A stretch of DNA of 64,000 nt. Origin: an uncultured Ignavibacteriota bacterium. GTDB lineage: Bacteria; Bacteroidota; Ignavibacteria; Palsa-1295. The stretch covers positions 98,686 through 162,685 of the forward strand of contig CAIUMP010000044.1 of NCBI GenBank assembly GCA_903900335.1, read 5' to 3'. This document shows, in pieces, positions 16,115-64,000 of the stretch. A program made the position numbers and the translations under genes. Positions within the stretch are counted from its first letter, which is position 1; each line of letters opens with the position of its first letter. The notes below the pieces were generated by a model. It had not been told where the DNA came from and did no database searches. It saw only the letters and a list, made by a program, of their open reading frames with translations.

Positions 16115-16576
16115 ATGATCCGGTCTGTTACTGAGGCGGATGCTGATGTTTGGGAACACCTGCGCGAGTTGTTCTGGCCGACTGATGCAGGAGAGCATGG
16201 CAGGGAGAAAGGCGAACATTCAAGAGACATTGCGAAGTACTTTAATGGGGATCGAAGAGAGCCCGCCGAGGTGCTGCTCGCCATCAATCATGCGGGGCGG
16301 GTCGTTGGGTTCACAGAACTATCGATTCGGAATATTGTCGATGGGTGCTCGACTGGGCGTGTTGCATATCTGGAAGGTTGGTTCGTTGAGGAAGAGGAGC
16401 GCGGAAAGGGATTCGGCGCAGCTCTGATGCGCGCAAGTGAGGATTGGGGACGAGCGCAAGGCTGTACGGAATTCGCATCGGATACGGAGATCACAAACGA
16501 GTTGAGTATTTCGATGCACACACGTCTGGGTTTTGAAGAGACGGGTCGCGTTGCGCAGTTTAGGAAAGAACTCTGA
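16115..16576 (+). CDS. GNAT N-acetyltransferase, AAC(6')-like
   Basis: N-terminal ...VWEHLRELFWP... and GNAT motif A (EEERGKGFGAALM), reminiscent of aminoglycoside 6'-N-acetyltransferases. Confidence 0.6.
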   Translation: MIRSVTEADADVWEHLRELFWPTDAGEHGREKGEHSRDIAKYFNGDRREPAEVLLAINHAGRVVGFTELSIRNIVDGCSTGRVAYLEGWFVEEEERGKGFGAALMRASEDWGRAQGCTEFASDTEITNELSISMHTRLGFEETGRVAQFRKEL

Positions 16577-16679
16577 GGGATCTACAAACGGGGAAGCGCT
16601 CTGGTGGGCGCGCCGAACGCGCCACATCTTGGGATTTGTCATCCCTCGTTACTCGTTACCCGTCCACCTAACGCAGAGT

Positions 16680-18410
16680 ATGCCCGACATCTTTATTTCC
16701 TACTCCCGCAAAGACTCCGCGCAAGCACTTGGGCTTGCTGATCGACTGCGTGCATCTGGGATGGATGTGTGGATCGATCAACATGGTATTGAAGCGGCAA
16801 CCGCCTGGTCGAAGGAGATCGTTGACGCGATCGACACTGCCAATGTGTTCATCCTGCTGCTCTCGGCTTCCTCGATCGGGAGTGTTAATGTCGTGCGTGA
16901 GCTTGCCATCGCCAGTGAGTCCGATAAGCCCATTTTGCCCATCGAACTCGAATCGGTTGTGCTGCCAAGCGAGTTCAAGTACCAACTTTCGGGTGTGCAG
17001 CGCGCACACTATTCTGATTTTGCGGGAATACTTCGAGCCGTAACAAGACTCATTACCTCGCAGAGGAATCCGTCAGATTCCCCTATACCGTCCCAGCATG
17101 AACCGAGTCTCGAGCCTAATGATACGCGAAAGAGCCTCATGGTTCTTCCTTTCGAAGATCTCTCCCCCGGTGCCGACAATGCCTGGTTCGCAGATGGATT
17201 GATGGGCGAGTTGATTTCATCACTCTCTCACATCAAATCCTTACGTCTCATAGACCAGCGCACATCGAGAGACTTTAAGGATGTAAAAGTTAAGCTTACT
17301 GATATTGCGAAGGAGTACGCTATTCGATACTTCATCGAAGGCTCTGTTCGCAAATTTGGTGACCAGATCAAGGTCTCTCTGACACTCCTCGATATAATAA
17401 CGGGGGATCATCTCTGGCAGTACTCTCATCGCGGGGATTTCTCTGACATCTTCGATGTGCAGGAGCAGCTTGCAGCGAAGACGGTAGAGGGGTTGCGACT
17501 TCATCTCACGTCTGACGAAGAAGTAAAACTAAAGGAGCGCGGGACAGACAATGCCGAAGCATACGAGCTGTACCTCAAAGGCAATGAGTATTATGATCGG
17601 CATACGAAAGCGACGTTTGGATATGCACTCTCCGTCTTTCGTGATGCTATTGATCTCGATCCGAAATTCGCTGAAGCCTACGTCGGCGCGGCGGACACAC
17701 TTTCAGAGACCTGGCGTGTATATGACCGTAATCCAGCCATGCTCGAAGAGGCTGAGCAACTCCTTGAGACTGCTCGAGGGCTTAAGCCATCGCTGACACG
17801 TATCCTTGATATTCTCGCTCACATTCGGCTTCGGCAGGGGCGATTTGAAGAAGCGGAGGAGTTGGCGAAGAAGTTTGTCGAGTTGGAGCCGGAGAGTCGT
17901 CTCAGCCATTTTACCCTCGGCTTTTTGTACATGGAAATCGGGCAACCCACCCGCGCGATTCCCGCCTTCGAGGCGTGTATTCGTGTTCAGCCCGACTACC
18001 TCACCGCGCGCTGGAATCTCGTGCTAACGTTCGATCGCGCTGGTGATACTGCGGGACGAATTCGAGCGGCCGAAGAAGCGATTCCACTCTTCGAAAAGCG
18101 ACTCCGCCAATTCCCGGATGACGAGGACACGCGATGCCAACTACCGAATCTACTTTTCCACGCTGGACGCAAGGTGGAGGCAAGCGTGGCGCTGGCGACC
18201 GTCACGGGACTAAAAGACGCGGGTTCATTCTATAATCTTGCGTGTCTGGCGTCGAATCTCGGAAAACACGAACTTGCAGTTCGCTACCTCAGGAACGCAC
18301 TGGAAGGTGGGTTCGCCCACAAAGAGATCTTTCGTGTAGATCCTGATCTTGAGGCGATTCGGAATCGGGATGACTTTCGAGAACTAATGGCAGAATTTCA
18401 CGTACACTAG
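16680..18410 (+). CDS. TIR-domain protein with central TolB-N-like domain and C-terminal TPR repeats
   Basis: Begins MPDIFISYSRKDS...WIDQ (bacterial TIR_2). Central LMVLPFEDLSP...WFADGLMGEL...RYFIEGSVRKFGDQIKVSLTLLDIITGDHLW block. Then TPRs. Track ORF starts at 16533, but the paralogue at 60977..62752 starts at the equivalent MPDIF. Confidence 0.65.
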   Translation: MPDIFISYSRKDSAQALGLADRLRASGMDVWIDQHGIEAATAWSKEIVDAIDTANVFILLLSASSIGSVNVVRELAIASESDKPILPIELESVVLPSEFKYQLSGVQRAHYSDFAGILRAVTRLITSQRNPSDSPIPSQHEPSLEPNDTRKSLMVLPFEDLSPGADNAWFADGLMGELISSLSHIKSLRLIDQRTSRDFKDVKVKLTDIAKEYAIRYFIEGSVRKFGDQIKVSLTLLDIITGDHLWQYSHRGDFSDIFDVQEQLAAKTVEGLRLHLTSDEEVKLKERGTDNAEAYELYLKGNEYYDRHTKATFGYALSVFRDAIDLDPKFAEAYVGAADTLSETWRVYDRNPAMLEEAEQLLETARGLKPSLTRILDILAHIRLRQGRFEEAEELAKKFVELEPESRLSHFTLGFLYMEIGQPTRAIPAFEACIRVQPDYLTARWNLVLTFDRAGDTAGRIRAAEEAIPLFEKRLRQFPDDEDTRCQLPNLLFHAGRKVEASVALATVTGLKDAGSFYNLACLASNLGKHELAVRYLRNALEGGFAHKEIFRVDPDLEAIRNRDDFRELMAEFHVH

Positions 18411-50081: not shown

Positions 50082-50156
<75 letters not shown>

Positions 50157-50273: not shown

Positions 50274-53171
50274 ATGAACCACCTGCTTACGAACTCTGAG
50301 CAATTCCAGAACCGCCACAATGGTCCAGATGAAGCGGACCAATTGCTGATGCTTAAGGCACTCGGCGTACAGTCGCTTGATGACCTCGTTGCCGAGACAG
50401 TGCCCCGCTCCATACGGTTGAAGGAGCCGATGCTGATGAAGCCTGCGATGTCAGAGTCGGAGTTCCTCGATCATGCGGCCGCACTTGCTTCGAAGAACAA
50501 GCTCTTCAAGTCCTACATCGGTATGGGCTACTACGATACGGTGACGCCGCCGGTCATCCTTCGCAACGTGCTGGAGAACCCGGGTTGGTACACTCAGTAC
50601 ACGCCGTATCAAGCGGAGATCTCCCAGGGTCGGCTTGAATCGCTTTTGAACTTTCAAACGGTAATTGTTGACCTGACGGGTTTAGAGATCGCGAATGCAT
50701 CCCTTCTCGACGAAGGCACTGCGGCAGCCGAGGCGATGCACCTAATGCACGCGGTTCACAGGAAGGCGAACAAAGCGGCTCGCACGCTCTTTGTTGACGA
50801 GAATATCTTTCCGCAAACGCTCGATGTGCTTCGCACACGCGCAGCAGTGCTCAACATCCATGTGATGGTTGGTGACCACCGCACTATGGAATGGAATGAT
50901 GACATCTTCGGGGCCGTGGTTCAGTATCCGGCGGGCGATGGAGAAATTTACGATTACAAGAATTTCTGCGAAGCGGCGCACAGTTGCGGCGCATTAGTAA
51001 CTGTTGCGTGCGATCTCATGAGTTTGCTTCTACTGACACCTCCCGGTGAGTTTGGAGCGGATGTGGCGGTCGGATCAGCACAGCGGTTTGGCGTGCCGCT
51101 TGGATATGGTGGACCACATGCTGCCTTCTTTGCAACACGCGACGAGTTCAAACGCTCGATGCCTGGCCGCATCATCGGTCTTTCCATTGATAGCCACGGA
51201 AACCCTGCCTATCGGATGGCACTGCAAACACGCGAGCAGCACATACGCCGCGACAAAGCGACAAGCAACATCTGCACGGCGCAGGCACTGCTTGCGAACA
51301 TCACCGCGATGTTCGCCGTCTATCACGGGCCACGCGGGCTCCGTGCGATCGCCGAACGTATTCATGCAATGACCTGCCTGCTGGCGGAAGGCCTTAAGGA
51401 CATCGGCTTTGCAACGCAGAACGAGCGTTACTTCGACACGTTGAAGGTGGAAGTAAGCAGCATCGCGATGCTGGAAGGTATCCGACGTGAAGCACTGGCC
51501 GCGAATATCAATTTCCGATACTTCGATGAACGAGCTGTTGGCATCTCGCTCGACGAGACAACAACGATCCACCATGTCACCGCGATTCTCAATGTCTTCC
51601 ACCGTGCGAACTCAAGCAAGGCCGTCGAGAGCTATATTCCTCTTCTTGAAAAGAAGATCACAACAGAGTTCGACGCGCCATTTGCACGGCACTCATCCTA
51701 TCTAACACATCCCGTATTCAACAAGCACCACTCCGAGACAGAGATGCTTCGCTATCTGAAGTTCTTGGAGAACAAGGATTTCTCGCTTGCACACGGCATG
51801 ATCCCGCTCGGCTCCTGCACGATGAAGCTCAACGCAACGGCGGAGATGATCCCGATCACGATGCCGAACTTCGGGAAGTTGCATCCCTTTGTACCGCTCG
51901 ATCAGGCCGAGGGCTATTTGGAGATGTTCGCAGAGTTAGAGGGAATGCTCAAGACGGTCACGGGCTTCCACGCGATCTCGCTTCAACCAAATGCGGGTGC
52001 GCAAGGAGAGTACGCTGGACTGCTTGTCATTCGCGAGTATCATAAGAATCGCGGCGAGAACCATCGCGATGTCGTGCTTATTCCGGCCTCTGCTCATGGC
52101 ACAAACCCGGCAAGCGCAGTGATGGCAGGCATGAAGGTCGTCGTCGTGAAGACGGATGAGAAGGGCAATGTGGATATGGCAGATCTTCACGCCAAAGTTG
52201 AAGAGTATAAGGCTTCGCTCGGCGCGTTCATGGTGACCTACCCTTCCACTCACGGTGTGTTCGAGGAGAGCATCAAAGATATTTGCAAACTCATTCACGA
52301 GGCGGGTGGGCAAGTCTATATGGACGGTGCGAACATGAATGCGCAGGTTGGCCTCACGAGTCCGGCCTCCATCGGTGCTGACGTGTGCCACCTCAATTTG
52401 CACAAGACATTCTGCATTCCGCATGGCGGCGGCGGCCCTGGAATGGGACCGATCGGTGTTGCACAGCATCTCGCGCCATTTCTTCCGGGACATACTGTCA
52501 TCCGCACCGGGGGCGATCGCGCTATAGGCGCCGTTAGCGCAGCACCCTGGGGAAGCGCGAGTATTCTGCTCATCTCCTATGCGTACATTGCTATGATGGG
52601 CGCAGAGGGTTTGACGCTCGCAACGAAGATCGCAATACTCAATGCCAATTACATCGCTGCGGCACTGGAGGAATATTATCCTACTCTTTATCGTGGTACG
52701 CATGGTAGGGTCGCTCATGAGATGATCCTCGACATGCGCGGCTTCAAGACGCTGGGCGTTGAAGTCGAAGACATTGCGAAGCGCCTGATGGATTACGGCT
52801 TCCACGCGCCGACGCTTTCCTTCCCTGTCGCGGGCACGCTGATGGTTGAGCCAACCGAGAGCGAGCCAAAGGAAGAACTTGACCGCTTCATTGACGCGAT
52901 GATTGCAATTCGTCAGGAGATCGAGGAGATCGCCTCCGGCGCGACGGACGCGAAGGATAACGTCCTGAAGAATGCGCCGCACACTGCGGAGTCGGTCATC
53001 GCGGATAACTGGGCGCATCCATACTCACGAGAAAAGGCGGCATACCCCGTTCGCTCATTGCGCACCAACAAATTCTGGCCGAGCATTGGCCGCGTCAACA
53101 ACGCCGTTGGAGACCGCACGCTCATCTGCACCTGTCCGCCAATGGAGGCGTATGAGCATCACGCGGTTTAA
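50274..53171 (+). CDS. gcvP: Glycine dehydrogenase (decarboxylating), single-chain P protein
   Basis: 965 aa. Conserved GcvP N- and C-terminal halves. PLP-Lys region ([19 protein letters not shown]). Confidence 0.9.
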
Positions 53172-53386
53172 TCGCAGCGCAATTGACAGCACCTTAGTCG
53201 CGGCCCGCTTGTAGCAACGACAAAATGGTTTAATGTCCTCAAGCTCCTTAGGCGTGGCCCGTTCACCAATCAACGGACCGCGCCTACCACGCAGTCATTC
53301 TCACCTCCTCAGACTGCTCGTCGCATACCCACAAGAATTACCCCACCACCCCGGAACGAGACTGCCGCGCGTTTTGCTGTTCTGGC

Positions 53387-55504
53387 ATGGTGAAACGGGC
53401 TTCGCGCAGGGGTTCTGTCAGGCTCTCGTGGATGCGCGGGAGAGTTACTGTTTTTGTGGCGGTGGTTGGGATGATGGTGGCGGGTGCGGAGAGGAGTGAG
53501 GCGCAGTGGGTCAAGCTGACTGGACAAGGCGGATTTGAAGTGACTTCCTTCGCAGGGAGCGGCTCAATGTTCTTTGCTGGGACCTATGGAGGAGGCGTTG
53601 TTCGTAGCACCGACAGTGGGGCAAGTTGGAAGTCTGTAAATAGCGGATTGGCTAACAGGCTGGTTCTGTCTCTTTTGGGAAACGGGAATAACCTCTATGC
53701 CGGGACTGACAGCGGGCTTTATCTTTCAACAGACAACGCATCCTCTTGGCATCCTATTAATTTTGGCCTGCAGTACCTTCACATTGAGGCTCTTGCATTA
53801 CGGGGCACAACTCTATTTCTTGGAACATATGGTGGAGTCTTTCTCTCATCCGACAGTGGTACAAGTTGGACTCCGGCGAACAACGGTCTCACAAACCAAG
53901 CTGTTCGAACCCTCGCAGTAAGTGGTAACAATTTATTCGCGGGTACTACTGGTAGCGGAAATGGTGGCGTCTTTCTATCCACTAACAATGGCGCTTCGTG
54001 GACACGTGTAAACACTGGGTTAACGAATACTTTTGTCAACACGCTCGTTGCAAGCGGCTCTACAGTTTTCGCTGGGACTGAGGGCGATGGTGTGTTTCGG
54101 TCCACCGATAATGGAACCAGTTGGAAGATGGTCAGCTCTTCACTTAGAGGTGATCTCATCTATACCATGGCAGCGCGCGGCACAGAGGTATTCGTAGGTT
54201 GCGATTATGGGATTTATCGGACTACAAATAATGGTGCGACATGGCAGGATGTTAATAATGCTCTTGGTATGCCATACGTCTTCGCGTTGGCTACATTTGG
54301 CACAAACCTCTATGCTGGCGTTCTCGGAGGAATCGTTCGCTCGTTGGACACATGCAAGACTTGGTCTGAAGTCACTCCTCCTCTCCCTGAATACACATTT
54401 GGTCGCGCACTTGCCGTGAGTGGAGGCACTCTAATTGCCGGCACAACCCGTGGCCTGTTTCGTACCACAGACGATGGACAGAGTTGGAATACTGAAGCAC
54501 AAGACTTAGCGGTATCGGACGTCAATACGCTCCTCTTTAGAGGCAAGAATTTGTTGGCTGGCACTGCAAACGGCATATTGTTATCACCTGACGACGGCAT
54601 GCATTGGTTCTCTTTGGATACGAGTTTCCATGCGTCTGTCCAGACTCTTGTCATGGGTAACTCAAATTTGATAGCCGGAGCCAAAGAAGGCATTTATCTA
54701 TCCAGCAATGACGGTAAAAACTGGAAGCTGGCCAAAACGGGGGTTTTCAATGCAAGTGTTACTGCATTGGCCGTCAACGGTAGTATTATTTACGCAGGGA
54801 CTACCCGCAACGTCGTATATCGCTCCACTGATGATGGTGATACTTGGGAAGCTATCCACACTTTCACTGAGTTAAATGGGCTTACTGCCTATTCTCTCTG
54901 TCTTTACGGCACAAAGCTTTATCTCGGGACGAACGGGGGTGTTTTTCGAACGGACGATAGCGGCACAACTTGGAATCCGGTCAACACTGGTATGGCGGGA
55001 AATCATATCCTAACATTTTTGCCCAGCGGCAAGAAATTGTTTGCTGGTGGGTACGTCGGTGTCTCACTTTCAATAGACAGCGGTTCAAACTGGACACCCG
55101 TTAATAATGGCTTGCCTTACACGGCTGTGTATGCCCTCGCTGCAGCGGGCGCTTACTTCTTTGCAGGAACCGATACTGGCATCTGGCGTCGTCCCCTCTC
55201 CGAAATGATCCCCACCAACGCCGTCGCACCCGCACGGCCTGTTGCGCGGAGCATCGCCGCCTATCCCAACCCCTTCACATCATCCGCGACGATCAGCTTC
55301 ACAGCCACCGAGAGCGGCGCGGCGCAGGTGCGGGTGGTGAATATGCTTGGGGAGGAAGTTGCGCGGTTGTTCGAGGGGGAGATTGCGGTGGGGGAGAGGC
55401 AACTCACATGGAATGCCAAGCTCATGCCACCGGGAATCTACTGGAGCGAGGTGTGGACAAATGGGCAAGCGCCGGAGAGGGTTGCATTGAGATTGGAGCG
55501 GTAG
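53387..55504 (+). CDS. Secreted BNR/Asp-box repeat (Ycf48/sortilin-like beta-propeller) protein with T9SS C-terminal sorting domain
   Basis: Many S-x-D-x-G-x-(S/T)-W repeats (STDSGASW, STDNASSW, SSDSGTSW ...). C-terminal YPNPFTSSATISF...VVNMLGEEV...LMPPGIYWSEV typical of Por/T9SS CTD. Likely start 53432. Confidence 0.55.
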   Translation: MVKRASRRGSVRLSWMRGRVTVFVAVVGMMVAGAERSEAQWVKLTGQGGFEVTSFAGSGSMFFAGTYGGGVVRSTDSGASWKSVNSGLANRLVLSLLGNGNNLYAGTDSGLYLSTDNASSWHPINFGLQYLHIEALALRGTTLFLGTYGGVFLSSDSGTSWTPANNGLTNQAVRTLAVSGNNLFAGTTGSGNGGVFLSTNNGASWTRVNTGLTNTFVNTLVASGSTVFAGTEGDGVFRSTDNGTSWKMVSSSLRGDLIYTMAARGTEVFVGCDYGIYRTTNNGATWQDVNNALGMPYVFALATFGTNLYAGVLGGIVRSLDTCKTWSEVTPPLPEYTFGRALAVSGGTLIAGTTRGLFRTTDDGQSWNTEAQDLAVSDVNTLLFRGKNLLAGTANGILLSPDDGMHWFSLDTSFHASVQTLVMGNSNLIAGAKEGIYLSSNDGKNWKLAKTGVFNASVTALAVNGSIIYAGTTRNVVYRSTDDGDTWEAIHTFTELNGLTAYSLCLYGTKLYLGTNGGVFRTDDSGTTWNPVNTGMAGNHILTFLPSGKKLFAGGYVGVSLSIDSGSNWTPVNNGLPYTAVYALAAAGAYFFAGTDTGIWRRPLSEMIPTNAVAPARPVARSIAAYPNPFTSSATISFTATESGAAQVRVVNMLGEEVARLFEGEIAVGERQLTWNAKLMPPGIYWSEVWTNGQAPERVALRLER

Positions 55505-55965
55505 GTTCCTCGCATTAACACCGCAACTACTGCGCTACAGAAAGTGCTCTCCCTAAGAAGCGGTAAGGATGCTTAACTCAACCGAACATTCTTGTTTACT
55601 ACAACCAAAATGCAACTGGCACTTGCATGCATTAGGAGTGAAAAACGCGGTTGGCGCGTGACTTGCAATCGGAACCAGTACCTGGGATAATCTTAGCCGA
55701 CAGAATATTTCATCCCACATCAACCGCATCAACTCCGGCGCGTGAGTGCATGATCGTTATGGCATTCCGATCACAGGTTGCCACTCTCACAGAGTCACAG
55801 ATACGATGAAGCACGCGAAAAGCTGAAGCTCTACGGTGGCAAGAATTCGGGGAGTATTCTTTGCCAGAACTTTCACTGTGGGATGCATCTCGGTGCAGAC
55901 ACAGCGGGGAGTTCTTTGCCTTCCCTCATTGCAGACAGTTACTTCACCTTATTTGAATTACTCTC

Positions 55966-57723
55966 ATGCACACACTCAACAATTCCACTTCAGGCCACAT
56001 CACGCCGATGAGTCATCATCTGCATCGTGGAATGGCCATCATGCTCGGTACTTTACTGAGCATTCTCATTCATAGCGGTTCAGCTCTTGCACAACTGCCG
56101 CGGACGATCTCCTATCAGGGCACTCTGAAGCAAGGTCAAAACGCCATGACCGGCACCGTTGACCTGCGAGTGAATTATTACTTGTCCGGTTCGACTACCG
56201 CTGTATACGACGAGACATTCAGCAGTGTGCCGGTGGTAAATGGTGTGTTCTCGATCGAACTCGGATCGGTGATGGGTTCGCTGCCAGCGGCAGTGGATCT
56301 GAGCCGAGCGGTTGAGATCGGCGTGCAAGTCAACGGAAGTGCGGAGCTAACACCACATGCAAAGTTGATGGCAGCACCATATGCATTCACCGCGTACTCG
56401 CTGAATGGCGTACGGGGCAGTCTCGTGCCAGTCAATAATACCATCTTCCCTATTCCGTTGGATGCAAATGGAAAGATCGCAGCATCGATACTACCTCCGA
56501 ACCCGATCTCTGGAATACTCGCGGGTCCTGGCCTCATGGGCGGCGGCGTGGCGGGGATGCTCACGATGGGAATTGCCGATGGTGGTATTACCGGGAACAT
56601 GATTCGAGCCGGGACCATCACAGGAAGCATGATCACTGGTCTGGCTGGCACAGCGCTGAATCAGGATGGAAGTGGCTTACTCCATCTTTCGTATGACCCG
56701 GCGAAGTTTGCCATCACGAACAACAAGCTCATGCTTCGCACCGATGTTCCAGTCGTCGGCTCGGAGGCTGCATTCAGTGGCCGGGTTGCTCTTGGTTCTT
56801 CGCCGGATGCGACGGACAACTATTTCGGCACAGCCGACAATGCCAACTACGTCGTGAACTTCATCGGTAGCGCGGGCTACGGTAGTGTGACGATATTCAA
56901 TGGTCAGCTCTACATGGGTGGTCCGCTCGACGCTGGCGGTAACGTGATAAGTGATCTGGCATTTCCAAACTCCCCGACGGATGCAGCGACGAAGGACTAC
57001 GTCGATCAGCGCATTGGGGTCACAGCGCCACTCGGACATGATCTGACGGGGACAATAGGAACTGCAACGCTCGACCCAACAAATCCAGGCATCGGCGACA
57101 GACTGATCCAGGGTATCAATGCAAGCGTTGGCGAGACGGTCATCAGCGGATTGCATGTGGGACGCGTAGCCTGGGCTGACAACGCAGACTTCGCAGGGTC
57201 ATTCCTCGGCCAGCTCGCCGGTGATGTCACCGGACAACAGGCCACGACCGTGGTTGGAGCGATACAGGGAATCGCAGTGAACCCGCAACTTCCACTTGAT
57301 AACCAGGTGCTCGCATTCGAAGGAGAGATGAATCGCTGGACTCCACGAGCACTTCCGCCAGCGGTGACGGCTATCAGCGCGGGCCCTGGAATAACTGTCA
57401 CGGGAGACGATCCGGCACGGCCCATGGTCGAAGTTACTCCTCCGTCTACGATGGGGACATCTGGAAAGGTGTCTCTCTATAACTCTGGTAGCGGATACGC
57501 GGAGGTGGTAGGCGCAACGATCAATAACTCCAACGTGACCTCGAACAGCATCATCATGTGCACCGTCGAAGTGGATGCGCATAGCAATACGGCCGACGAG
57601 TACGTGGTCTATCTTTCCGGTATCACCAATGGCTCCTTTAGGATCAATCTCCATCAGGCGAACGGATTCCTGGGGTTAGGCGTAAACGAGGGAGCGACGG
57701 TGCACTACGTCATCTTCAACTGA
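55966..57723 (+). CDS. Secreted hypothetical protein with tail-fibre-like N-terminal region
   Basis: Signal peptide at internal Met (56032). N-terminus ISYQGTLKQGQNAMTGTVDLRVNYYL...YDETF...VVNGVFSIELG resembles the conserved N-termini of Bacteroidota 'tail fiber domain' proteins. Gly-rich central region. Confidence 0.35.
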   Translation: MHTLNNSTSGHITPMSHHLHRGMAIMLGTLLSILIHSGSALAQLPRTISYQGTLKQGQNAMTGTVDLRVNYYLSGSTTAVYDETFSSVPVVNGVFSIELGSVMGSLPAAVDLSRAVEIGVQVNGSAELTPHAKLMAAPYAFTAYSLNGVRGSLVPVNNTIFPIPLDANGKIAASILPPNPISGILAGPGLMGGGVAGMLTMGIADGGITGNMIRAGTITGSMITGLAGTALNQDGSGLLHLSYDPAKFAITNNKLMLRTDVPVVGSEAAFSGRVALGSSPDATDNYFGTADNANYVVNFIGSAGYGSVTIFNGQLYMGGPLDAGGNVISDLAFPNSPTDAATKDYVDQRIGVTAPLGHDLTGTIGTATLDPTNPGIGDRLIQGINASVGETVISGLHVGRVAWADNADFAGSFLGQLAGDVTGQQATTVVGAIQGIAVNPQLPLDNQVLAFEGEMNRWTPRALPPAVTAISAGPGITVTGDDPARPMVEVTPPSTMGTSGKVSLYNSGSGYAEVVGATINNSNVTSNSIIMCTVEVDAHSNTADEYVVYLSGITNGSFRINLHQANGFLGLGVNEGATVHYVIFN

Positions 57724-57856
57724 CACCATCGCCTTCTCCGAAGCAGGCACAATAGAATATTTTACACTAGCGCAAGAGAGAGTTCAACGCAATCGGGCCT
57801 CAAGATGCAATACACATCTTGGGGCCGATTGACTTTGGGAAGATCAAGATCTGCGC

Positions 57857-60232
57857 TTAGAACTCCACACGGAAGCCACCGTACGGGAACAGCCCGAGTT
57901 GATTGATGTGCGTGATCGAATGTGTTCGGGGGTCGTAAGAATAGATCAGTACATTCGAGTGGTTGATGGCATTTTCAGCAGTGAAGAATCCGACGATGGA
58001 CACGGCTCCGAGGTTCTGCCGGAATTCTACTTTCACGTCGAGCCGCTGATAGGTCGGGTAACGCTCGGAGAATGGCTTTGAGTCATCGAAGTACTGTGGT
58101 CCGAATTCGCCGGAGCTGTTGAACATGCGCGCTCGAACGGTATCAATGGGAGTGTACGGTGCCCCACCAGCGAGGGTGAACTTGCTGGAGAACTCGATGG
58201 AGAACGTCGGCGAGAGTTTCCACTCGTAGCCTGCCAATAGGTTCACGATGTACTGGTTATCGAATGCGCCGTCGTGCCAGATGCCATCAGAGCCTGTGAA
58301 CTGCTGGCGGAAGAGTGAGCCCGTTGCCGTGAAGTAGTAGCCATCCGAGAAGTGCTTCATGAGTGTCAACTCAACACCATAGGATTTTCCGAGACCGTTG
58401 CTGGCAAGAGTCCGATCCGTCGAAACACCACCGAAATTTGCACCAGCGTTCAAGTAACTGAAGCTTGTGGCTGAATCACGATCGACCGGTGCATGGGAGA
58501 TGTCTTTGTAGTATCCTTCCGCTTTGAAGAGGAGATCGGACGCGAAGTGATTCGTGTAACCGAGGATGTAATGGATAGACTGCGTGAAATCGAGTGTACT
58601 GTTCGCAGGATTGCCGAAATAGACTACGAGTGGCTGTGCTTGACGGTGAACACCGAAGCCTACATTTAGCGATTGATCGTCGGCAAACGACCATTGCGCA
58701 CCGAAGCGAGGCTCTAGCGAAGACTTCCCGCTGATGGCGAGATAGTGATAGTGCAGACCCGTGTTGAATGCCAGATCGTTCGTCGGGCGCCATTGCCAAT
58801 TGAGGAAACTGAGCGCCTCCTCCGAAGAACCTGATGCATGGATCGAGAATGGAATTGTCCGGGCATCGCGTGTGGTGGTGCGGGATTCGTTCAGATCATA
58901 ATACGGCAGTCTTACTTCAATGCCTCCGCTAAAGTCATGCGATGTGCTTGCCGAGTAGTTTAGTGAGTACTTGAGGGAATGCGCCGCTTCTTTCGAATCG
59001 CTCGTGTAGAAGAGGTTCTTGTCGAGAAGCTTGTAATCAGGTGTTGAGGTGAGCGAATCTACGGTAGTCTGATAGGTTTGATATACTGTGCTGAGGGCCA
59101 GTGTCCCGATCGCGCGTTCGTTGAATATATGCTTCCATGTTGCTCCGAGCACACCAAGCTCGGAGCCGTTAGTGATATCGAAGTCACCCGTTAGGACAGT
59201 GTCCTGCGTGCTTTGATTGATGGCGATGGTACTGCGTCCACCCAGTCCGATGATACCGAGAGCATCGCTTTGGCCAAGCGGTACATCCGCCTTGATGCTC
59301 AGATCGTCATACTTCGGTACGCCAGCGAAGCCAAAGTCTATGCCGAGTGCATTGAAAATTTGCAGCGTCGATTTACGATAACTAACGATGAACGAACTGC
59401 CCGGAACGAAGAGCGGTCCTTCTGCCATGCCTTCGAACCCAGCGAAGCCCATCTGCGCGACGTATTCAAATCGCTCGGAATTCCCTTTTCGCGTTCGTAA
59501 GTCGAAGACTCCGGAGATCTTGTTGCCGTACTCGGCTGGGAATGCACCAGTAAGAAAATCGCTGTTGCTCAGCAGATTCATATTGATCGCATTGACGGGA
59601 CCGCCAGTAGCCCCTTGCGTTGCGAAGTGGTTCGGGTTCGGGATGTCAATGCCATCGAGCCGCCATAGCAACTCCATTGGTGAGCCACCACGAATGATGA
59701 TGTCATTGCGCTGATCATTTGCGCCAACGACACCGGCGAACGTCTGTGCCATTCGTGCGGGATCTTCCCGGCTTCCAGCAAAGCGCTTGGCCTCATCCAC
59801 ACTGAACGTTGTCGCGCTGACGAGCGCCGCCTCGTTGATCGGGGTAAAGTTATCACCTGAGGTAACTACCACTTCCCCACCCTGCACAACCTTCGCTCGT
59901 ATGCGGAGCTCGATGACAACCTGCTTTCCGCTGGTGACCAAAATATCTTGTCCGGTGGTCTCGTACCCAAAGAGCGAGGCTTCCAATTGATGTCGGCCGA
60001 CCGGTACTCCTTCGATTCGAAATGTGCCATCTGCTTTGGATTTGCCGCCGAGTTTGCTCCCGAGGAGGCGCACCTTCGCCCCAGCCACCGGCTGCTGATC
60101 GTCGAAGTCAATGACAGTACCTTTGACTGTCTGCACAGGTCCCGTGGTCTCCTGAGCCTTAAGCAGCAAAGGAGGCGCGATTGCGGAGATGCACAGTGCG
60201 CATACAACGGTGAGTAGAAAATGAGCTTTCAT
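57857..60232 (-). CDS. TonB-dependent receptor with N-terminal carboxypeptidase-regulatory-like domain
   Basis: Signal peptide. CarbopepD_reg-like segment (VKGTVIDFDDQQPVAGAKVRL...). Plug domain. C-terminal ...YGGFRVEF barrel terminus. Confidence 0.7.
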   Translation of the reverse strand: MKAHFLLTVVCALCISAIAPPLLLKAQETTGPVQTVKGTVIDFDDQQPVAGAKVRLLGSKLGGKSKADGTFRIEGVPVGRHQLEASLFGYETTGQDILVTSGKQVVIELRIRAKVVQGGEVVVTSGDNFTPINEAALVSATTFSVDEAKRFAGSREDPARMAQTFAGVVGANDQRNDIIIRGGSPMELLWRLDGIDIPNPNHFATQGATGGPVNAINMNLLSNSDFLTGAFPAEYGNKISGVFDLRTRKGNSERFEYVAQMGFAGFEGMAEGPLFVPGSSFIVSYRKSTLQIFNALGIDFGFAGVPKYDDLSIKADVPLGQSDALGIIGLGGRSTIAINQSTQDTVLTGDFDITNGSELGVLGATWKHIFNERAIGTLALSTVYQTYQTTVDSLTSTPDYKLLDKNLFYTSDSKEAAHSLKYSLNYSASTSHDFSGGIEVRLPYYDLNESRTTTRDARTIPFSIHASGSSEEALSFLNWQWRPTNDLAFNTGLHYHYLAISGKSSLEPRFGAQWSFADDQSLNVGFGVHRQAQPLVVYFGNPANSTLDFTQSIHYILGYTNHFASDLLFKAEGYYKDISHAPVDRDSATSFSYLNAGANFGGVSTDRTLASNGLGKSYGVELTLMKHFSDGYYFTATGSLFRQQFTGSDGIWHDGAFDNQYIVNLLAGYEWKLSPTFSIEFSSKFTLAGGAPYTPIDTVRARMFNSSGEFGPQYFDDSKPFSERYPTYQRLDVKVEFRQNLGAVSIVGFFTAENAINHSNVLIYSYDPRTHSITHINQLGLFPYGGFRVEF

Positions 60233-60282
60233 TGATTACGATGACTATCTAATGAACAGTGTTAAGTTGACAAGAAAAAAAA

Positions 60283-60897
60283 TTATCGTCTGAGCAGGAG
60301 CAGAAAATTATCCAGGAGGGCTTTGCTCATCCCGTCCGCTACTTCCTCCGGTACGAGCACTCGCTGCTTGATTATCAGGGAGACGATCCCATGGAGCATA
60401 TTCCATATCATCAGCGAGCCGAGCTCTACGTCCTTAACGCGGAGCTTGCCTTCGGAAACGCAGGCGCTGACCACCTGACGGAGGACGTCAAACGACTGGA
60501 GCCCGGTATCCTTGCATTGTTCCTCCGCGATCACCGTCATTGGTACCTCTAGGATAAACATCAGGTCATAGAGCTTTGGGTTAGCCAATCCCCACTCGAT
60601 ATACTGTTTACAACCTGCGTAGAGGCGTTCATACGGATCGAGAATACCGCTGAGTTTGTGCTGCTCCGCTAGGAATTGGCCGAAGGCAAGGCTGTAAAGA
60701 TCGTAGAAGATCTCGTCCTTGTCACGGTAATAGAGGTATATCGTTGCTGGGCTGAACTCTATTTTCTCAGCAATGTTGCGTATGGAAAGGCTCCCCAATC
60801 CCTCAGATAGGTACAACTGCATTGCAGCATCGAGGATCATTCCTCGCATGGACTCCCGTTCTCGCGTCTTTCGTTCTTGAATTCCCATACGGCGCAC
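60283..60897 (-). CDS. TetR/AcrR-family transcriptional regulator
   Basis: TetR HTH (LSIRNIAEKIEFSPATIYLYYRDKDEIF). Confidence 0.75.
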   Translation of the reverse strand: MRRMGIQERKTRERESMRGMILDAAMQLYLSEGLGSLSIRNIAEKIEFSPATIYLYYRDKDEIFYDLYSLAFGQFLAEQHKLSGILDPYERLYAGCKQYIEWGLANPKLYDLMFILEVPMTVIAEEQCKDTGLQSFDVLRQVVSACVSEGKLRVKDVELGSLMIWNMLHGIVSLIIKQRVLVPEEVADGMSKALLDNFLLLLRR

Positions 60898-60976
60898 ATT
60901 AACTAAACGGTGTTCAGTTTGGTTTCGCTTCTACAAATCTTTGCTAGGTCTCTAGCTGATTCTCTTATATTCTGGG

Positions 60977-62752
60977 TTAAGCCTGGGGAAGCTCCACGAC
61001 AGAAGCTTCACGCCTTTCAATATCCTCGATCAGTTGCTTGTACTCCGGCATTTCGAGAATAGGGCCTTCGAACATCCGGAAGAGATCATAGCGTTGGAAT
61101 CCCAAGTCAAAGGCCTTGCGGACGGCCATGATCGCTTCATCCGGGCGATCCATTTGCACCCAGAGGCAACCGATGTTGAATTCCGTCATCGCGTCGCGGA
61201 TGTTGTGCAGCGAGCGAAGGTAGGTTGTCGCCCGCTCTACGTCCCCGGACCAATGCAACAGAACCGCGTAGTCTACTTTTCCTCGCTCATCGTCGGGTCG
61301 CAGACGCAGAAGGCGTTCGTATTTTGGCAACCCCGCGTTCGACCAGAACTTTAACTTGTCCCACTCCTGCGCCTTTTCGCAGCATTGACAAAGATTGAAG
61401 TAGGTGCGCGCTGCGTTGGGATCGAGCGCCAAGCACGCTTCGAACGGTGGGATCGCCAGATCGAACTGAAAACTCTCCGCATAGACAAAACCCAGGACGC
61501 TGTGACCATCCGCGCTCGTTGGCTCGCGCCGTATATACTCGTTCGCATGCGTGACAGCAGCGGCGATGTCCCCTCGGGCAAGCGCGATACGACTGCGCGT
61601 TGCTAGTGCCTCCGAGAGTGAAGGCTTCAGCGTGAGTGCCGTTCGCACCAACGCTTCTGCGTCATCGAGCAGCACGTTGCTATGATCATACGAACGGTAA
61701 AGCAACGCGAGGCAATTTGCTTTATGATTATACGCTTCAGCAAAGTCAACATCCAACTTGAGCGCTTCGGACTCCAGCGCGATAGCGTGTTCCAATCCTT
61801 CCTTCGAACCACCGCGTTGATATTCGCGGGCCTTGAGGTAGAGCTCGTAGGCTTCCGCATTTTCGGTCGACTTTGCGTTGAGAAGCGATCTACGCTCCTC
61901 GGAGCTAAGCGTAAGCGTTAGCCCGTCCACTACTTTTGCCGCAACTGCCTCCTGAATTTCGAAGATCTCCGAAAAGACGCCTTTGTGAGAGTCCTGCCAG
62001 AGATACTCGCCGCGCTCGATGTCGAGCAATGCTGCAGAGATCTTGATCTGTTCGCCGAATTTTCGAACGGAGCCTTCGATGAAGTAACGGACGTCCAGCT
62101 CGCGAGCAATCTCTGAAGTCTTCAGACTTATGTTCTTGAACTCTCGAGATGTTTTTTGGTCTATGAGCCGAAGCGATTTGATACGGCTGAGCGCACCAAT
62201 CAGCTCGGACATGAGTCCATCTGCAAACCACTCATTGTCCTTCGTAGGAGACAGATCTTCGAATGGAAGCACCATGAGCGATTTCCGCTGGTCAGACGAA
62301 CGTGCGCTGTTAGGATATTGGGTTTGTTTTGCGCTGCGATCTGAGTCCGTTGCCGGAGTTGGAGCGAAGCTTCCGACGCCGAGCTTCGTTAATGCTCGTA
62401 GGATTCCATCGAAGTTCTCGATCTTGACCCGTTGAAGGCCTGCGAGTTGGTAGTGGAAGTCATCTGTTACTTCGACTTTTTCCAATTCGATCGGGACAAT
62501 CGAACGCCTGAACTGGCTTGCTAGAGAAACTTCCTTTATGACATTCCGCGATGCGAGCGAGCGCGAGGAAAGCAAAAGACAAAACGCCCAGCACTCCTTG
62601 ATCGCACCCACGATCTCTTTGCCCCAATTCGTGGCCGCCTCGATGCCGGTCTGATCCATCCATATCTCCATTCCAGCAGCACGTAGTTTCTCGGCAAGCG
62701 CGATGGCGTGCGGAGAATCTTTGCGGGAATAGGAGATAAAAATGTCAGGCAT
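60977..62752 (-). CDS. TIR-domain protein with TolB-N-like domain and TPR repeats (paralogue of 16680..18410)
   Basis: MPDIFISYSRKDS...WMDQ TIR N-terminus. SLMVLPFEDLSP...WFADGLMSEL...RYFIEGSVRKFGEQIKISAALLDIERGEYLW block. C-terminal TPRs. About 45-50 % identity by eye to the first copy across domains. Confidence 0.65.
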   Translation of the reverse strand: MPDIFISYSRKDSPHAIALAEKLRAAGMEIWMDQTGIEAATNWGKEIVGAIKECWAFCLLLSSRSLASRNVIKEVSLASQFRRSIVPIELEKVEVTDDFHYQLAGLQRVKIENFDGILRALTKLGVGSFAPTPATDSDRSAKQTQYPNSARSSDQRKSLMVLPFEDLSPTKDNEWFADGLMSELIGALSRIKSLRLIDQKTSREFKNISLKTSEIARELDVRYFIEGSVRKFGEQIKISAALLDIERGEYLWQDSHKGVFSEIFEIQEAVAAKVVDGLTLTLSSEERRSLLNAKSTENAEAYELYLKAREYQRGGSKEGLEHAIALESEALKLDVDFAEAYNHKANCLALLYRSYDHSNVLLDDAEALVRTALTLKPSLSEALATRSRIALARGDIAAAVTHANEYIRREPTSADGHSVLGFVYAESFQFDLAIPPFEACLALDPNAARTYFNLCQCCEKAQEWDKLKFWSNAGLPKYERLLRLRPDDERGKVDYAVLLHWSGDVERATTYLRSLHNIRDAMTEFNIGCLWVQMDRPDEAIMAVRKAFDLGFQRYDLFRMFEGPILEMPEYKQLIEDIERREASVVELPQA

Positions 62753-63164
62753 CAGTTGAGAGTAGAAGAGACCGGATATCGCTCCGAAATCCTGTTGCGA
62801 TTCTCAGAGCGGCGACGGCGTCCTTTTCATTGGCCCATTCACCGGGGTACCGAAACTCTGCGGCGTACTGTGTTAGGCCGGCGAATGAGCTTCGCCACGC
62901 CTCCCATATCGGTTGCTTGTCAATGGCGAGATCGAGCAGGTCTTCGAGGTCGTGAGTTTTAGGAAACCGAATATCGTGCTCCTGCAAATAGCCTTTGAGA
63001 TATTTCTCCACACACTGCTGTGAAAGAAAGCAGACCAAATCTACGCTCAATCGTTCGGCATGTGCGTCGGAAAAATCGGACTCCGCCTTCTTAATCCACT
63101 CTTCGGTGATCTGCTTCATACAGTGTGCTGCCTCGATGAAGGATGTCTCCAATGAATGAATCAC
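62745..63164 (-). CDS. HEPN-domain protein (putative toxin of a HEPN/MNT pair)
   Basis: All-alpha roughly 130-aa protein downstream of and overlapping a minimal nucleotidyltransferase gene. Probable start at 63119 (MKQITEEW). Confidence 0.5.
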   Translation of the reverse strand: MIHSLETSFIEAAHCMKQITEEWIKKAESDFSDAHAERLSVDLVCFLSQQCVEKYLKGYLQEHDIRFPKTHDLEDLLDLAIDKQPIWEAWRSSFAGLTQYAAEFRYPGEWANEKDAVAALRIATGFRSDIRSLLLSTDA

Positions 63165-63420
63165 CGATTTCTAAACGGTGAGCGATGTCCACCGGTCTTC
63201 TGACGAACAGGTCGAGCGGAAATGGGCGACGGATCGCGCTGCGGATTTCGATCGCCTTCTCCACATTACGCTCGGCGTGATCCATAATGACTAAAAGATC
63301 CACATCGGAATCGGGGGTAGGCGTCCCATAGGCATACGAGCCGAAGAGGATGATCTTCCGCGGGGAGAATTGCTGCGCAACTGCACGGACGAATGTGTCG
63401 ATGTCGGCTCTGCTGGTCAT
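63091..63420 (-). CDS. Minimal nucleotidyltransferase (MNT) domain protein (putative antitoxin)
   Basis: ILFGSYAYGTPTPDSDVDLLVI matches the GSx9-13Dx(D/E) NTase motif. Confidence 0.65.
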   Translation of the reverse strand: MTSRADIDTFVRAVAQQFSPRKIILFGSYAYGTPTPDSDVDLLVIMDHAERNVEKAIEIRSAIRRPFPLDLFVRRPVDIAHRLEIGDSFIGDILHRGSTLYEADHRRVD

Positions 63421-63503
63421 GCTAATTCAACGAATCGAGTGGAGTGAAAATTTCACCGCAAACACGTAGATTGGGATAGTCGCTTGAATATGAGACCGAG
63501 ATG

Positions 63504-64000
63504 TCAGGCATGCGCAGTCGCCTCCTCCGTGTTTGACGCAGCCGCCGCGAGTTGCTCGGCTTCAATCTTCTCCACCATCAGTTTTACTTCTTCGTATTCG
63601 GGGGTTTGTCTCAACTTGCCGATTCCGGTATTATCCTCATCATTGAGGAACGAGCGCATCCCCTCAAGATTTACGAAACCTGATTCAATAGCTTTGCGGA
63701 ATGTCTTTAGTGATGATTCATAGTCCTTCAGTTCAGCTCGCAAGACTGCCATGTTAAATAGAGAATTCCCGTCCCGGACATTTGACAACAAACCCAATAC
63801 TTTGAGCGCATCTTCATCTCGCCCGAGCCAATGCAGAAGCATTGCTTGACAAACAATCCATGCTTCCTCGTCAGGATGAATCTTGATGTACCGCTCAAGC
63901 ACTGGGAGCGCAACCGAAGCCCAGTAAATAACGCGTTGTGGTTCATTAGCCGTATGGCAGGAAAGTGCTACGTTCACGAGGCTTGGCAAATAGTCTGACT
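63504..64000 (-). CDS. TPR-containing C-terminal fragment related to the TIR/TPR paralogues (gene continues beyond window edge)
   Basis: C-terminus (FNMAVLRAELKDYESSLKTFRKAIESGFVNLEGMRSFLNDED...) parallels the C-terminus of 16680..18410 (YNLACLASNLGKHELAVRYLRNALEGGFAHKEIFRVDPDLEAIRNRDDF). N-terminus would lie past position 64000. Confidence 0.4.
   Translation of the reverse strand, partial: SDYLPSLVNVALSCHTANEPQRVIYWASVALPVLERYIKIHPDEEAWIVCQAMLLHWLGRDEDALKVLGLLSNVRDGNSLFNMAVLRAELKDYESSLKTFRKAIESGFVNLEGMRSFLNDEDNTGIGKLRQTPEYEEVKLMVEKIEAEQLAAAASNTEEATAHA

Follow-up and report, generated by a model that had tools for sequence, protein, structure and literature searches.

A TIR domain, a TolB-N-terminal-like α/β domain and a solenoid of tetratricopeptide repeats (TPRs) are joined in a single chain in three paralogous proteins, P1, P2 and P3, from an uncultured Ignavibacteriota bacterium. 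The genes lie in, or run over the end of, a stretch of 64,000 nucleotides (the window; assembly GCA_903900335.1, contig CAIUMP010000044.1, positions 98,686–162,685). P1–P3 belong to a lineage-specific family that forms tandem arrays of diverged copies. We tentatively favour, while stopping just short of calling it probable, a reading in which these proteins are ligand-activated NADase sensor-effectors with a role in immunity.

Three paralogues with one domain plan

The original prediction, made from the letters of the window, placed a second full TIR–TPR gene (P2) some 43 kb from the first (P1). The open reading frame (ORF) call, Pfam matches to TIR_2 and to TPR families, and the alignment of the two proteins (46% identity across 560 aa, E 3e-166) bear this out, with 42.6 kb between the genes. 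The start of P1 is an ATG inside the ORF 16533–18410. The family genes and the domains of P2 are as follows.

16680–18410, plus strand: P1, first paralogue; 576 aa, the same three-domain plan, with a C-terminal TPR_END_plus cap.
60977–62752, minus strand: P2; 591 aa, complete; Pfam TIR_2 and TPR matches; TIR, TolB-N-like and TPR domains.
62378–62752, minus strand: TIR domain of P2, residues 1–125; Pfam TIR_2, with the putative catalytic Glu74.
61907–62287, minus strand: TolB-N-terminal-like α/β domain of P2, residues 156–282; from Foldseek of the domain model.
60995–61870, minus strand: TPR solenoid of P2, residues 295–586; Pfam TPR families, helical repeats in the model, Foldseek matches to TPR proteins.
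63504–64000, minus strand: last 164 codons of P3, which runs on past the window end; the full protein has 611 aa.

The ORF at the window edge was predicted to repeat the C-terminal part of P1 and perhaps to be the end of a third family member. It does align with the C-terminal ~140 aa of P2 (30% identity, E 7e-21) and of P1 (E 2e-14), and sequence past position 64000 supplies the missing TIR domain. A 16.8-kb metagenome contig (L001, Logan ERR4195047), retrieved by the exact P2 protein, matches window positions 50977–64000 at 100% across 13,024 bp and reaches 2,974 bp past the window end. There the ORF is completed to the 611-aa P3 (L001:1636–3471), which has Pfam TIR and TPR matches, an N-terminus reading MATDIFISYSRKD, and a match spanning positions 2–578 of the 580-position hidden Markov model (HMM) of the family. 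P3 is adjoined by the divergently transcribed miaB (L001:2–1513).

An AlphaFold model of P2, built from 44 homologues, has a mean predicted local distance difference test score (pLDDT) of 86 and comprises the TIR domain (residues 1–125), a disordered linker (residues 129–153), the α/β domain (157–280 in the model) and a long helical-repeat solenoid (299–586 in the model). P1–P3 begin directly at the βA strand of the TIR domain and have no signal peptide, transmembrane (TM) segment or other hydrophobic segment outside the TIR core strand. On these grounds the proteins are predicted to be soluble and cytoplasmic.

The TIR domain is a putative NAD-cleaving enzyme

The TIR_2 match of P2 covers residues 4–112 (E 5.5e-19) and scores 69 bits against a cut-off of 28, with P2 and P1 together in the range of 69–74 bits. 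The model shows a flavodoxin-like β–α pattern over residues 4–123. By sequence, the closest TIR domains in the PDB are those of the TIR-APAZ protein of SPARTA (E ~1e-3), on which E74 of P2 falls on E77. This is the position that we take to correspond to the catalytic glutamate E642 of SARM1. The glutamate is invariant in our family alignments of 32 and 44 sequences. In SPARTA, the E77A substitution abolishes NADase activity (PMC9097488). From this sequence pattern, the TIR domains of P1–P3 are probably NAD-cleaving enzymes with the catalytic glutamate kept.

Animal TIR adaptors work through assembly alone, and the TIR domain here might likewise be a non-catalytic interaction or scaffold domain that assembles multi-paralogue complexes, perhaps rings, for structural or regulatory ends that have nothing to do with NAD+. 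The fold family of the middle domain includes the ring-forming PelC and CsgG, and the coupled gene junctions described below suggest stoichiometric co-production of paralogues. The conservation within the domain argues the other way, with the catalytic glutamate and some 20 further TIR positions invariant among paralogues that are only ~45% identical, and so do its nearest solved sequence relatives, SPARTA and Cat1, which are active NADases. We regard a non-catalytic TIR domain as improbable.

The middle domain is TolB-like in fold

No Pfam family was found over residues 150–295 of P2, and TolB_N did not match. The region carries the motif LPFxDxSxxxDNxWFADGxxxExI ... VRKFG. Since TPR proteins dominated the PDB-profile and Foldseek matches of the whole protein, residues 150–300 were modelled alone (pLDDT 85). 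Foldseek of this model against the PDB returned the TolB N-domain, GNA1162, PelC, LpoB, FlgT and CsgG with E-values of 2e-7 to 1e-4, the first four at 1e-5 or better, and TM-scores of ~0.6 (GNA1162, E 2e-7; TolB 4PWZ, E 4e-7, query-normalized TM-score 0.63; PelC, E 9e-7). The "TolB-N" label of the original prediction thus stands as a fold and fails as a sequence family, and we use "TolB-like", as given by the modelled domain, at the level of fold only. No NTPase family (NACHT, NB-ARC or STAND) was detected in P1–P3 by Pfam or NCBIfam; the TolB-N-like fold holds the central place.

The sensor module is shared with cyclases

Among plasmids, 529 records, nearly all of them rhizobial, contain a match to residues ~126–548 of P2, with identities of up to 30%. 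The annotated matches are "adenylate/guanylate cyclase domain-containing protein", found at up to 10 places per replicon. One of these relatives is the 604-aa protein WP_237050945 of Microvirga ossetica, in which residues 24–147 form a Guanylate_cyc domain and a module homologous to that of P2 follows (BLASTP of P2 residues 140–548: 31% identity over 418 aa, E 5e-49). Judged by this alignment, the TIR domain sits exactly where the cyclase catalytic domain sits. The same region of P2 gives NCBIfam matches, all sub-threshold, to HilA/EilA (E 2e-8), CadC (E 3e-5) and "peptide modification system cyclase", and Foldseek of the whole P2 model finds the periplasmic sensor of CadC (3LY7, E 1e-7). The module has been exchanged, in one direction or the other, with cyclases and ToxR-type regulators. 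Many family members carry the JGI names "adenylate cyclase" or "TolB-like protein", which presumably stem from the shared module.

Two variants were observed in one Kapaibacterium array, L032. One member (L032:2798–4702) has a TM helix between the TIR and TolB-like domains, in a CadC-like topology. The other (L032:6447–9677) is a double-module fusion of 1,077 aa with the order TIR-TolB-TPR-TM-TolB-TPR. From their predicted topology, these variants appear to show that the family also explores extracytoplasmic sensing. Giant proteins (P0124 of 2,837 aa, P0129, P0158 and others) carry 3–7 tandem TolB-like domains, some with a TIR domain.

These relationships raise the possibility that P1–P3 are non-immune, one-component signalling proteins, in which the module would sense endogenous or environmental cues and the TIR domain would deliver an NAD-derived messenger or tune NAD+. 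The one-for-one exchange of the TIR domain for a class III cyclase domain, with a homologous module of equal length behind it, is as expected of such proteins, as are the weak homology to CadC and HilA, the multi-copy occurrence of the relatives on rhizobial replicons, and the TM-containing array variant, whose sensor would be extracytoplasmic as in CadC. We consider this role less likely than an immune one, though it is the main rival and a serious one, in view of further points on both sides that concern the distribution and the loci of the family.

A clade-wide family in tandem arrays

A homologue search returned 4,546 proteins at E<=1e-5. The best 120 of these are ~570–620 aa long and 44–75% identical, and the named ones are from Candidatus Kapabacteria. 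In a scan with one genome per species, 454 matches were confirmed; full-length matches lie essentially all in metagenome-assembled genomes (MAGs) labelled Kapaibacterium, Ignavibacteriota or "Bacteroidota", and a few weaker TIR–TolB-like–TPR proteins occur in Rhodanobacter and a myxobacterium. With residues 1–295 as query, 440 clusters (50% identity) were found at E<=1e-30 among 1.84 billion representatives.

An HMM search of fetched loci located 104 family ORFs in 22 Kapaibacteria-type MAGs. Single MAGs hold at least 17 and at least 13 copies, in same-strand arrays of up to six genes; these counts are lower bounds, taken from the fetched loci of related MAGs and not from the source genome. 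Of 53 tandem pairs of adjacent array genes, 29 share an overlap of exactly 8 nt (ATGnCTGA), e.g. in L005, L024, L044 and L034, so that the TGA of the upstream gene falls in codons 2–3 (Ser/Ala/Pro-Asp) of the next. A junction conserved in this way points to translational coupling of the paralogues.

Pairwise identity, averaged over 86 full-length members, is 58% for the TIR domain and likewise 58% for the TolB-like domain; the TPR region, taken as two halves, reaches only 37% and 33%. The effector end of the protein is conserved and the sensor end is variable.

No full-length member was found in phage genomes or viral contigs, and the plasmids searched gave only cyclase relatives; carriage on mobile elements was rejected on these grounds. 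Both this lack of association with mobile elements and the clade-wide presence of the family at conserved loci among housekeeping genes would fit signalling outside immunity.

Conserved positions with fast turnover

Paralogues at conserved loci in all relatives would have marked the family as core rather than accessory, and here the outcome is mixed. The positions beside miaB and beside the SRPBCC and lipocalin genes are kept among relatives, but copy number (1, 2 and 5 at the miaB locus) and sequence change fast. In L003, a relative with a 75% P2 orthologue, miaB (81% identical) is followed by a HicB/HicA pair and then by five tandem family genes, with neither TetR nor MNT/HEPN (the genes next to P2, described below). 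In L013 (miaB 73% identical), a single family gene stands there; it is the closest P3 relative in the fetched loci, at only 54%. The window genome has two copies at this position. The miaB-proximal copy of L003 is not among the best matches of P3, which reach only 50–54%. The P1 locus is likewise syntenic with L020 and L007 (SRPBCC 70–71%, lipocalin 66%), and no family gene of these two loci is among the best matches of P1, which reach only 49–52%. The loci are conserved, and the number and sequence of family genes turn over much faster than their flanks.

By analogy, this divergence and turnover resembles that of arms-race receptor families and favours immunity. Several points count against a signalling role outside immunity: positional counterparts diverge much faster than the flanks and copy number shifts, as in arms-race families, toxin–antitoxin (TA) cassettes accumulate at family loci, and no receptor for TIR products (SLOG, Macro or ThsA-like) recurs beside family genes. 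To our knowledge, all characterised bacterial TIR enzymes act in conflict systems.

In five related loci, a LexA-like repressor gene was observed within a few hundred bp of family genes (among them L027:7989–8666, L016:4914–5591 and L017:3184–3861). This neighbour probably reflects shared synteny, and it could hint at SOS-linked expression.

A TA cassette inserted between P3 and P2

Positions 60283–64000 hold five consecutive minus-strand genes in the ORF table for 58–64 kb: TetR, P2, HEPN, a minimal nucleotidyltransferase (MNT) and the edge ORF. That a TetR gene and a HEPN/MNT pair adjoin P2 was part of the original prediction, and both their positions and their Pfam families agree.

60283–60897, minus strand: TetR-family regulator, 204 aa; Pfam TetR_N and TetR_C_33.
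62745–63164, minus strand: HEPN of the PF05168 type; Pfam HEPN, E 4e-22.
63091–63420, minus strand: MNT, an antitoxin-type minimal nucleotidyltransferase of 109 aa; Pfam NTP_transf_2 (E 1e-13) and Polbeta.
63486–63511, minus strand: relic of the 5′ end of a family gene, ATGCCTGACATCTCGGTCTCATATTC, with the translation MPDISVSYS... and an 8-nt overlap with the P3 stop (63504–63511).

The MNT translation contains the GSX10DXD motif (GSYAYGTPTPDSDVD). The protein scores 46.9 bits against the NCBIfam model MntA_antitoxin (cut-off 60) and has a PADLOC match, PDC-S09. HEPN is of the PF05168 type and not HepT, gives no NCBIfam match, and carries the Rx4H motif as RFPKTH; its length is 139 aa if translation begins at a GTG and 124 aa if it begins at the ATG at 63119 (alternative gene calls give 135 and 124 aa). 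The MNT and HEPN genes have 29–74 nt in common, according to which start is used, and at its other end the HEPN gene runs 8 nt into P2, its stop overlapping the P2 ATG (62745–62752). Judged by its motifs and reading frames, the pair looks intact.

The pair stands between two copies of the array junction. The relic at 63486–63511 is a direct repeat of the P2 start at 62727–62752 (81% over 26 nt). The P3 stop lies within ATGCCTGA, after which the relic reads MPDISVSYSSDYP, and the true P2 start, at the HEPN stop, also lies in ATGCCTGA; both sites are canonical ATGnCTGA junctions. Because the pair lies between two copies of the family junction, we conclude that it was inserted secondarily into a pre-existing tandem and is not a partner of the TIR proteins. 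The ancestral tandem may have been either P3–P2 or P3–Px–P2 with Px since lost.

In other loci, a family gene is immediately preceded, on its own strand, by TA-type genes of other kinds: HicBA at a distance of 82 bp, ParE together with a small ORF upstream of it at 7 bp, and DUF4926 at 1 bp. In all, TA-like genes of four types occupy this position at four loci, and the majority of arrays lack them. Such a distribution is more in keeping with selfish cassettes that settle in variable operons than with a dedicated partner, and several types of TA-like cassette seem to favour family loci. At L010:3757–4244, L010:7722–8012, L008:2557–2805 and L016:7907–8314, we observed ParE with a small ORF, DUF6883, DUF4926 and DUF5618 flanking or interrupting arrays. 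A TetR homologue was found at none of 54 related loci, and the orthologous locus L003 has none; TetR is an unrelated neighbour outside the system. The neighbourhood of P1 has neither TetR nor a TA pair.

The original prediction saw in the clustering of TIR effectors with a TA pair a reminder of defence-island organisation. One could accordingly imagine that MNT/HEPN, the TIR proteins and TetR work together as a single defence operon or island, with the TA pair acting jointly with the TIR effectors: MNT, HEPN and P2 share one direction, HEPN ends within the start of P2, in four loci TA-like genes immediately precede a family gene, and MNT matches a PADLOC candidate (PDC-S09). We judge this very improbable. 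The duplicated P3/P2-type junction flanking the cassette points to insertion into an existing tandem, the TA type varies by locus (HicAB, ParE, DUF4926) with none at most arrays, and TetR recurs at no other locus, with P1 lacking both TetR and a TA pair. Island organisation was not borne out by the surroundings either. The neighbours of P2 and P3 are ordinary (miaB, a TonB-dependent receptor, type IX secretion system (T9SS) cargo and gcvP), as are those of P1 (GNAT, HlyD, SRPBCC, lipocalin and NmrA). With housekeeping and envelope genes on the flanks, no PADLOC system, a TA pair inserted later, a locus-specific TetR and TA cassettes as the one element that recurs, the comparison does not hold.

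PADLOC gave matches at the level of the TIR domain only, with no system-level match, and its ThsB matches cover the TIR domain only. Thoeris was not recognised, the NCBIfam ThcB4 model scoring 23–34 bits against a cut-off of 220 and no ThsA-type neighbour recurring. All-versus-all clustering of 357 flanking ORFs gave no recurrent partner gene, only housekeeping families at five loci or fewer. A two-gene system was rejected for this lack of a conserved partner, and the system would on the same ground be self-contained.

A working model

Our model is as follows. P1–P3 would be soluble, cytoplasmic, single-chain sensor-effectors in which the fast-diverging TPR solenoid and the TolB-N-like domain form a ligand-sensing and oligomerisation module that controls the N-terminal TIR domain. 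A ligand, most likely a foreign (e.g. phage) protein or peptide, would bring TIR domains together as active NADase assemblies, which may deplete NAD+ or make an ADP-ribose-derived signal. The diverged array copies, co-transcribed and coupled through the 8-nt ATGnCTGA overlap, could then represent a germline repertoire of specificities, with MNT/HEPN as a presumably selfish cassette inserted in the P3–P2 junction. The analysis establishes the architecture, the homologies, the pattern of conservation, the copy number, the junction and the insertion, and we infer the NADase activity, the ligand, the oligomerisation and the immune role.

The immune role is favoured by the precedent of E. coli TIR-II, by the arms-race-like turnover and by the accumulation of TA cassettes, as expected for variable, island-like loci. 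TIR-II is a single TIR and TPR protein that protects from phage and requires its TIR active site to do so (PMC11350192). Several observations weigh against this reading. All Kapaibacteria-type MAGs sampled have the family, and it occupies conserved chromosomal positions surrounded by housekeeping genes, a pattern that accessory defence genes do not usually show. The vicinity contains no known defence system, the PADLOC and NCBIfam defence models matching at the TIR level only and far below their cut-offs, and no member was found on the phages, viral contigs or plasmids searched. The relatives of the sensor module (cyclases, CadC and HilA) serve signal transduction and not immunity, and there is no NTPase switch of the kind used by STAND and NLR sensors.

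More speculatively, the TIR domain might be a routine output, interchangeable with a cyclase, in a large non-immune network of NAD-nucleotide messengers in Kapaibacteria, with arrays perhaps forming hetero-oligomeric rings of the TolB-N type; or the arrays might constitute an NTPase-less, NLR-like repertoire of invader sensors. We hold these wider proposals to be doubtful.

Bacterial, plant and animal immunity all have TIR enzymes at their centre. Little work has addressed how a TIR domain is coupled to a sensor in the absence of an NTPase switch, and this family offers a compact design. Its module, otherwise wired to cyclases and transcription factors, offers a test of TIR products as general messengers versus immune or suicide signals only. 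Among bacteria, the clade-wide arrays are a counterpart of NLR clusters, and they supply a ready-made collection of related sensors, whose ligands are presumably different. The duplicated 8-nt junction around MNT/HEPN illustrates clearly how a TA module can settle in an operon, and it cautions against taking TA adjacency for a functional link. We regard the family as a good experimental lead whose functional steps are inferred.

Other features of the window

The GC content of the region is unremarkable (0.51–0.53), and a scan for promoters and terminators gave background levels only. The sole tRNA gene in the window is tRNA-Pro (CGG) at 50082–50156 on the plus strand, just upstream of gcvP, and no integrase or island boundary was noted beside it. 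An ORF of 585 aa at 55966–57723 (plus strand) sits between a T9SS-sorted BNR protein and a TonB-dependent receptor; it has no Pfam match and a weak NCBIfam match to the Bdellovibrio "mosaic adhesive trimer" fibre domain. MiaB of this genome has a Pro/Gly-rich, internally repeated insertion of ~40 aa (PLPPLPLGEGNWPASPLTPLPLGEGNNSPSPNGRGGWGERQ) in a conserved part, and the MiaB orthologue of L013 is without it.

Comparison with known systems

TIR and TPR proteins and MNT/HEPN pairs are already known kinds. In the searchable literature, we found nothing relevant on TIR with TolB-like and TPR domains, on Kapabacteria with TIR, or on COG5616, and did not find described the central TolB-N-like domain, the swap with a cyclase output, the Kapaibacteria-wide ATGnCTGA arrays or the absence of an NTPase.

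The MNT/HEPN pair resembles MNT–HEPN TA pairs of the HI0073/HI0074 type and the type VII MntA/HepT pairs in its MNT-then-HEPN order, its gene overlap and its GSX10DXD and Rx4H motifs. It differs from type VII in that its HEPN is PF05168 and not HepT/DUF86 and its MntA model score is below the cut-off; unlike the known pairs, it is a passenger within an array of TIR genes.

In its sensor, the family is closest to the rhizobial class III adenylate/guanylate cyclases, which have a homologous TolB-like and TPR module, are ~600 aa long and soluble, and occur in many copies per genome. Their output is a cyclase and not a TIR domain. They are proteins of Alphaproteobacteria, in many cases encoded on megaplasmids, and no overlapping tandem arrays of them were seen. 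In CadC of E. coli and HilA/EilA of Salmonella, regulators of the ToxR type, a C-terminal α/β and helical-repeat sensor resembles the module of P1–P3, but the output is a winged-helix DNA-binding domain, and the matches score far under the family cut-offs. CadC carries its sensor in the periplasm, beyond a TM helix; P1–P3 have no TM segment.

At the effector end, the TIR-APAZ protein of SPARTA offers the closest solved TIR domain, with E77 aligned to E74, and SPARTA is activated by oligomerisation. Only the TIR domain is shared; P1–P3 have neither APAZ nor an Argonaute partner. With Avs and other bacterial NLR-like STAND sensors, and with plant TNL clusters, the family has in common an effector (here TIR) combined with a repeat sensor (here TPR) and a variable sensor end, and its diverged paralogues, clustered in tandem at conserved loci, recall NLR clusters. 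Where these have NACHT, NB-ARC or STAND modules, P1–P3 have a central TolB-N-like domain instead.

Likened by architecture alone, E. coli TIR-II is a further parallel, as a single gene with an N-terminal TIR, a C-terminal TPR region and no obligatory partner. About 30% of TIR-II systems carry an ATPase, which the P1–P3 family does not, and the text describing TIR-II mentions no TolB-N-like domain, tandem arrays or clade-wide expansion (PMC11350192). The active site is needed for defence in TIR-II, and the P1–P3 family has kept the catalytic glutamate.

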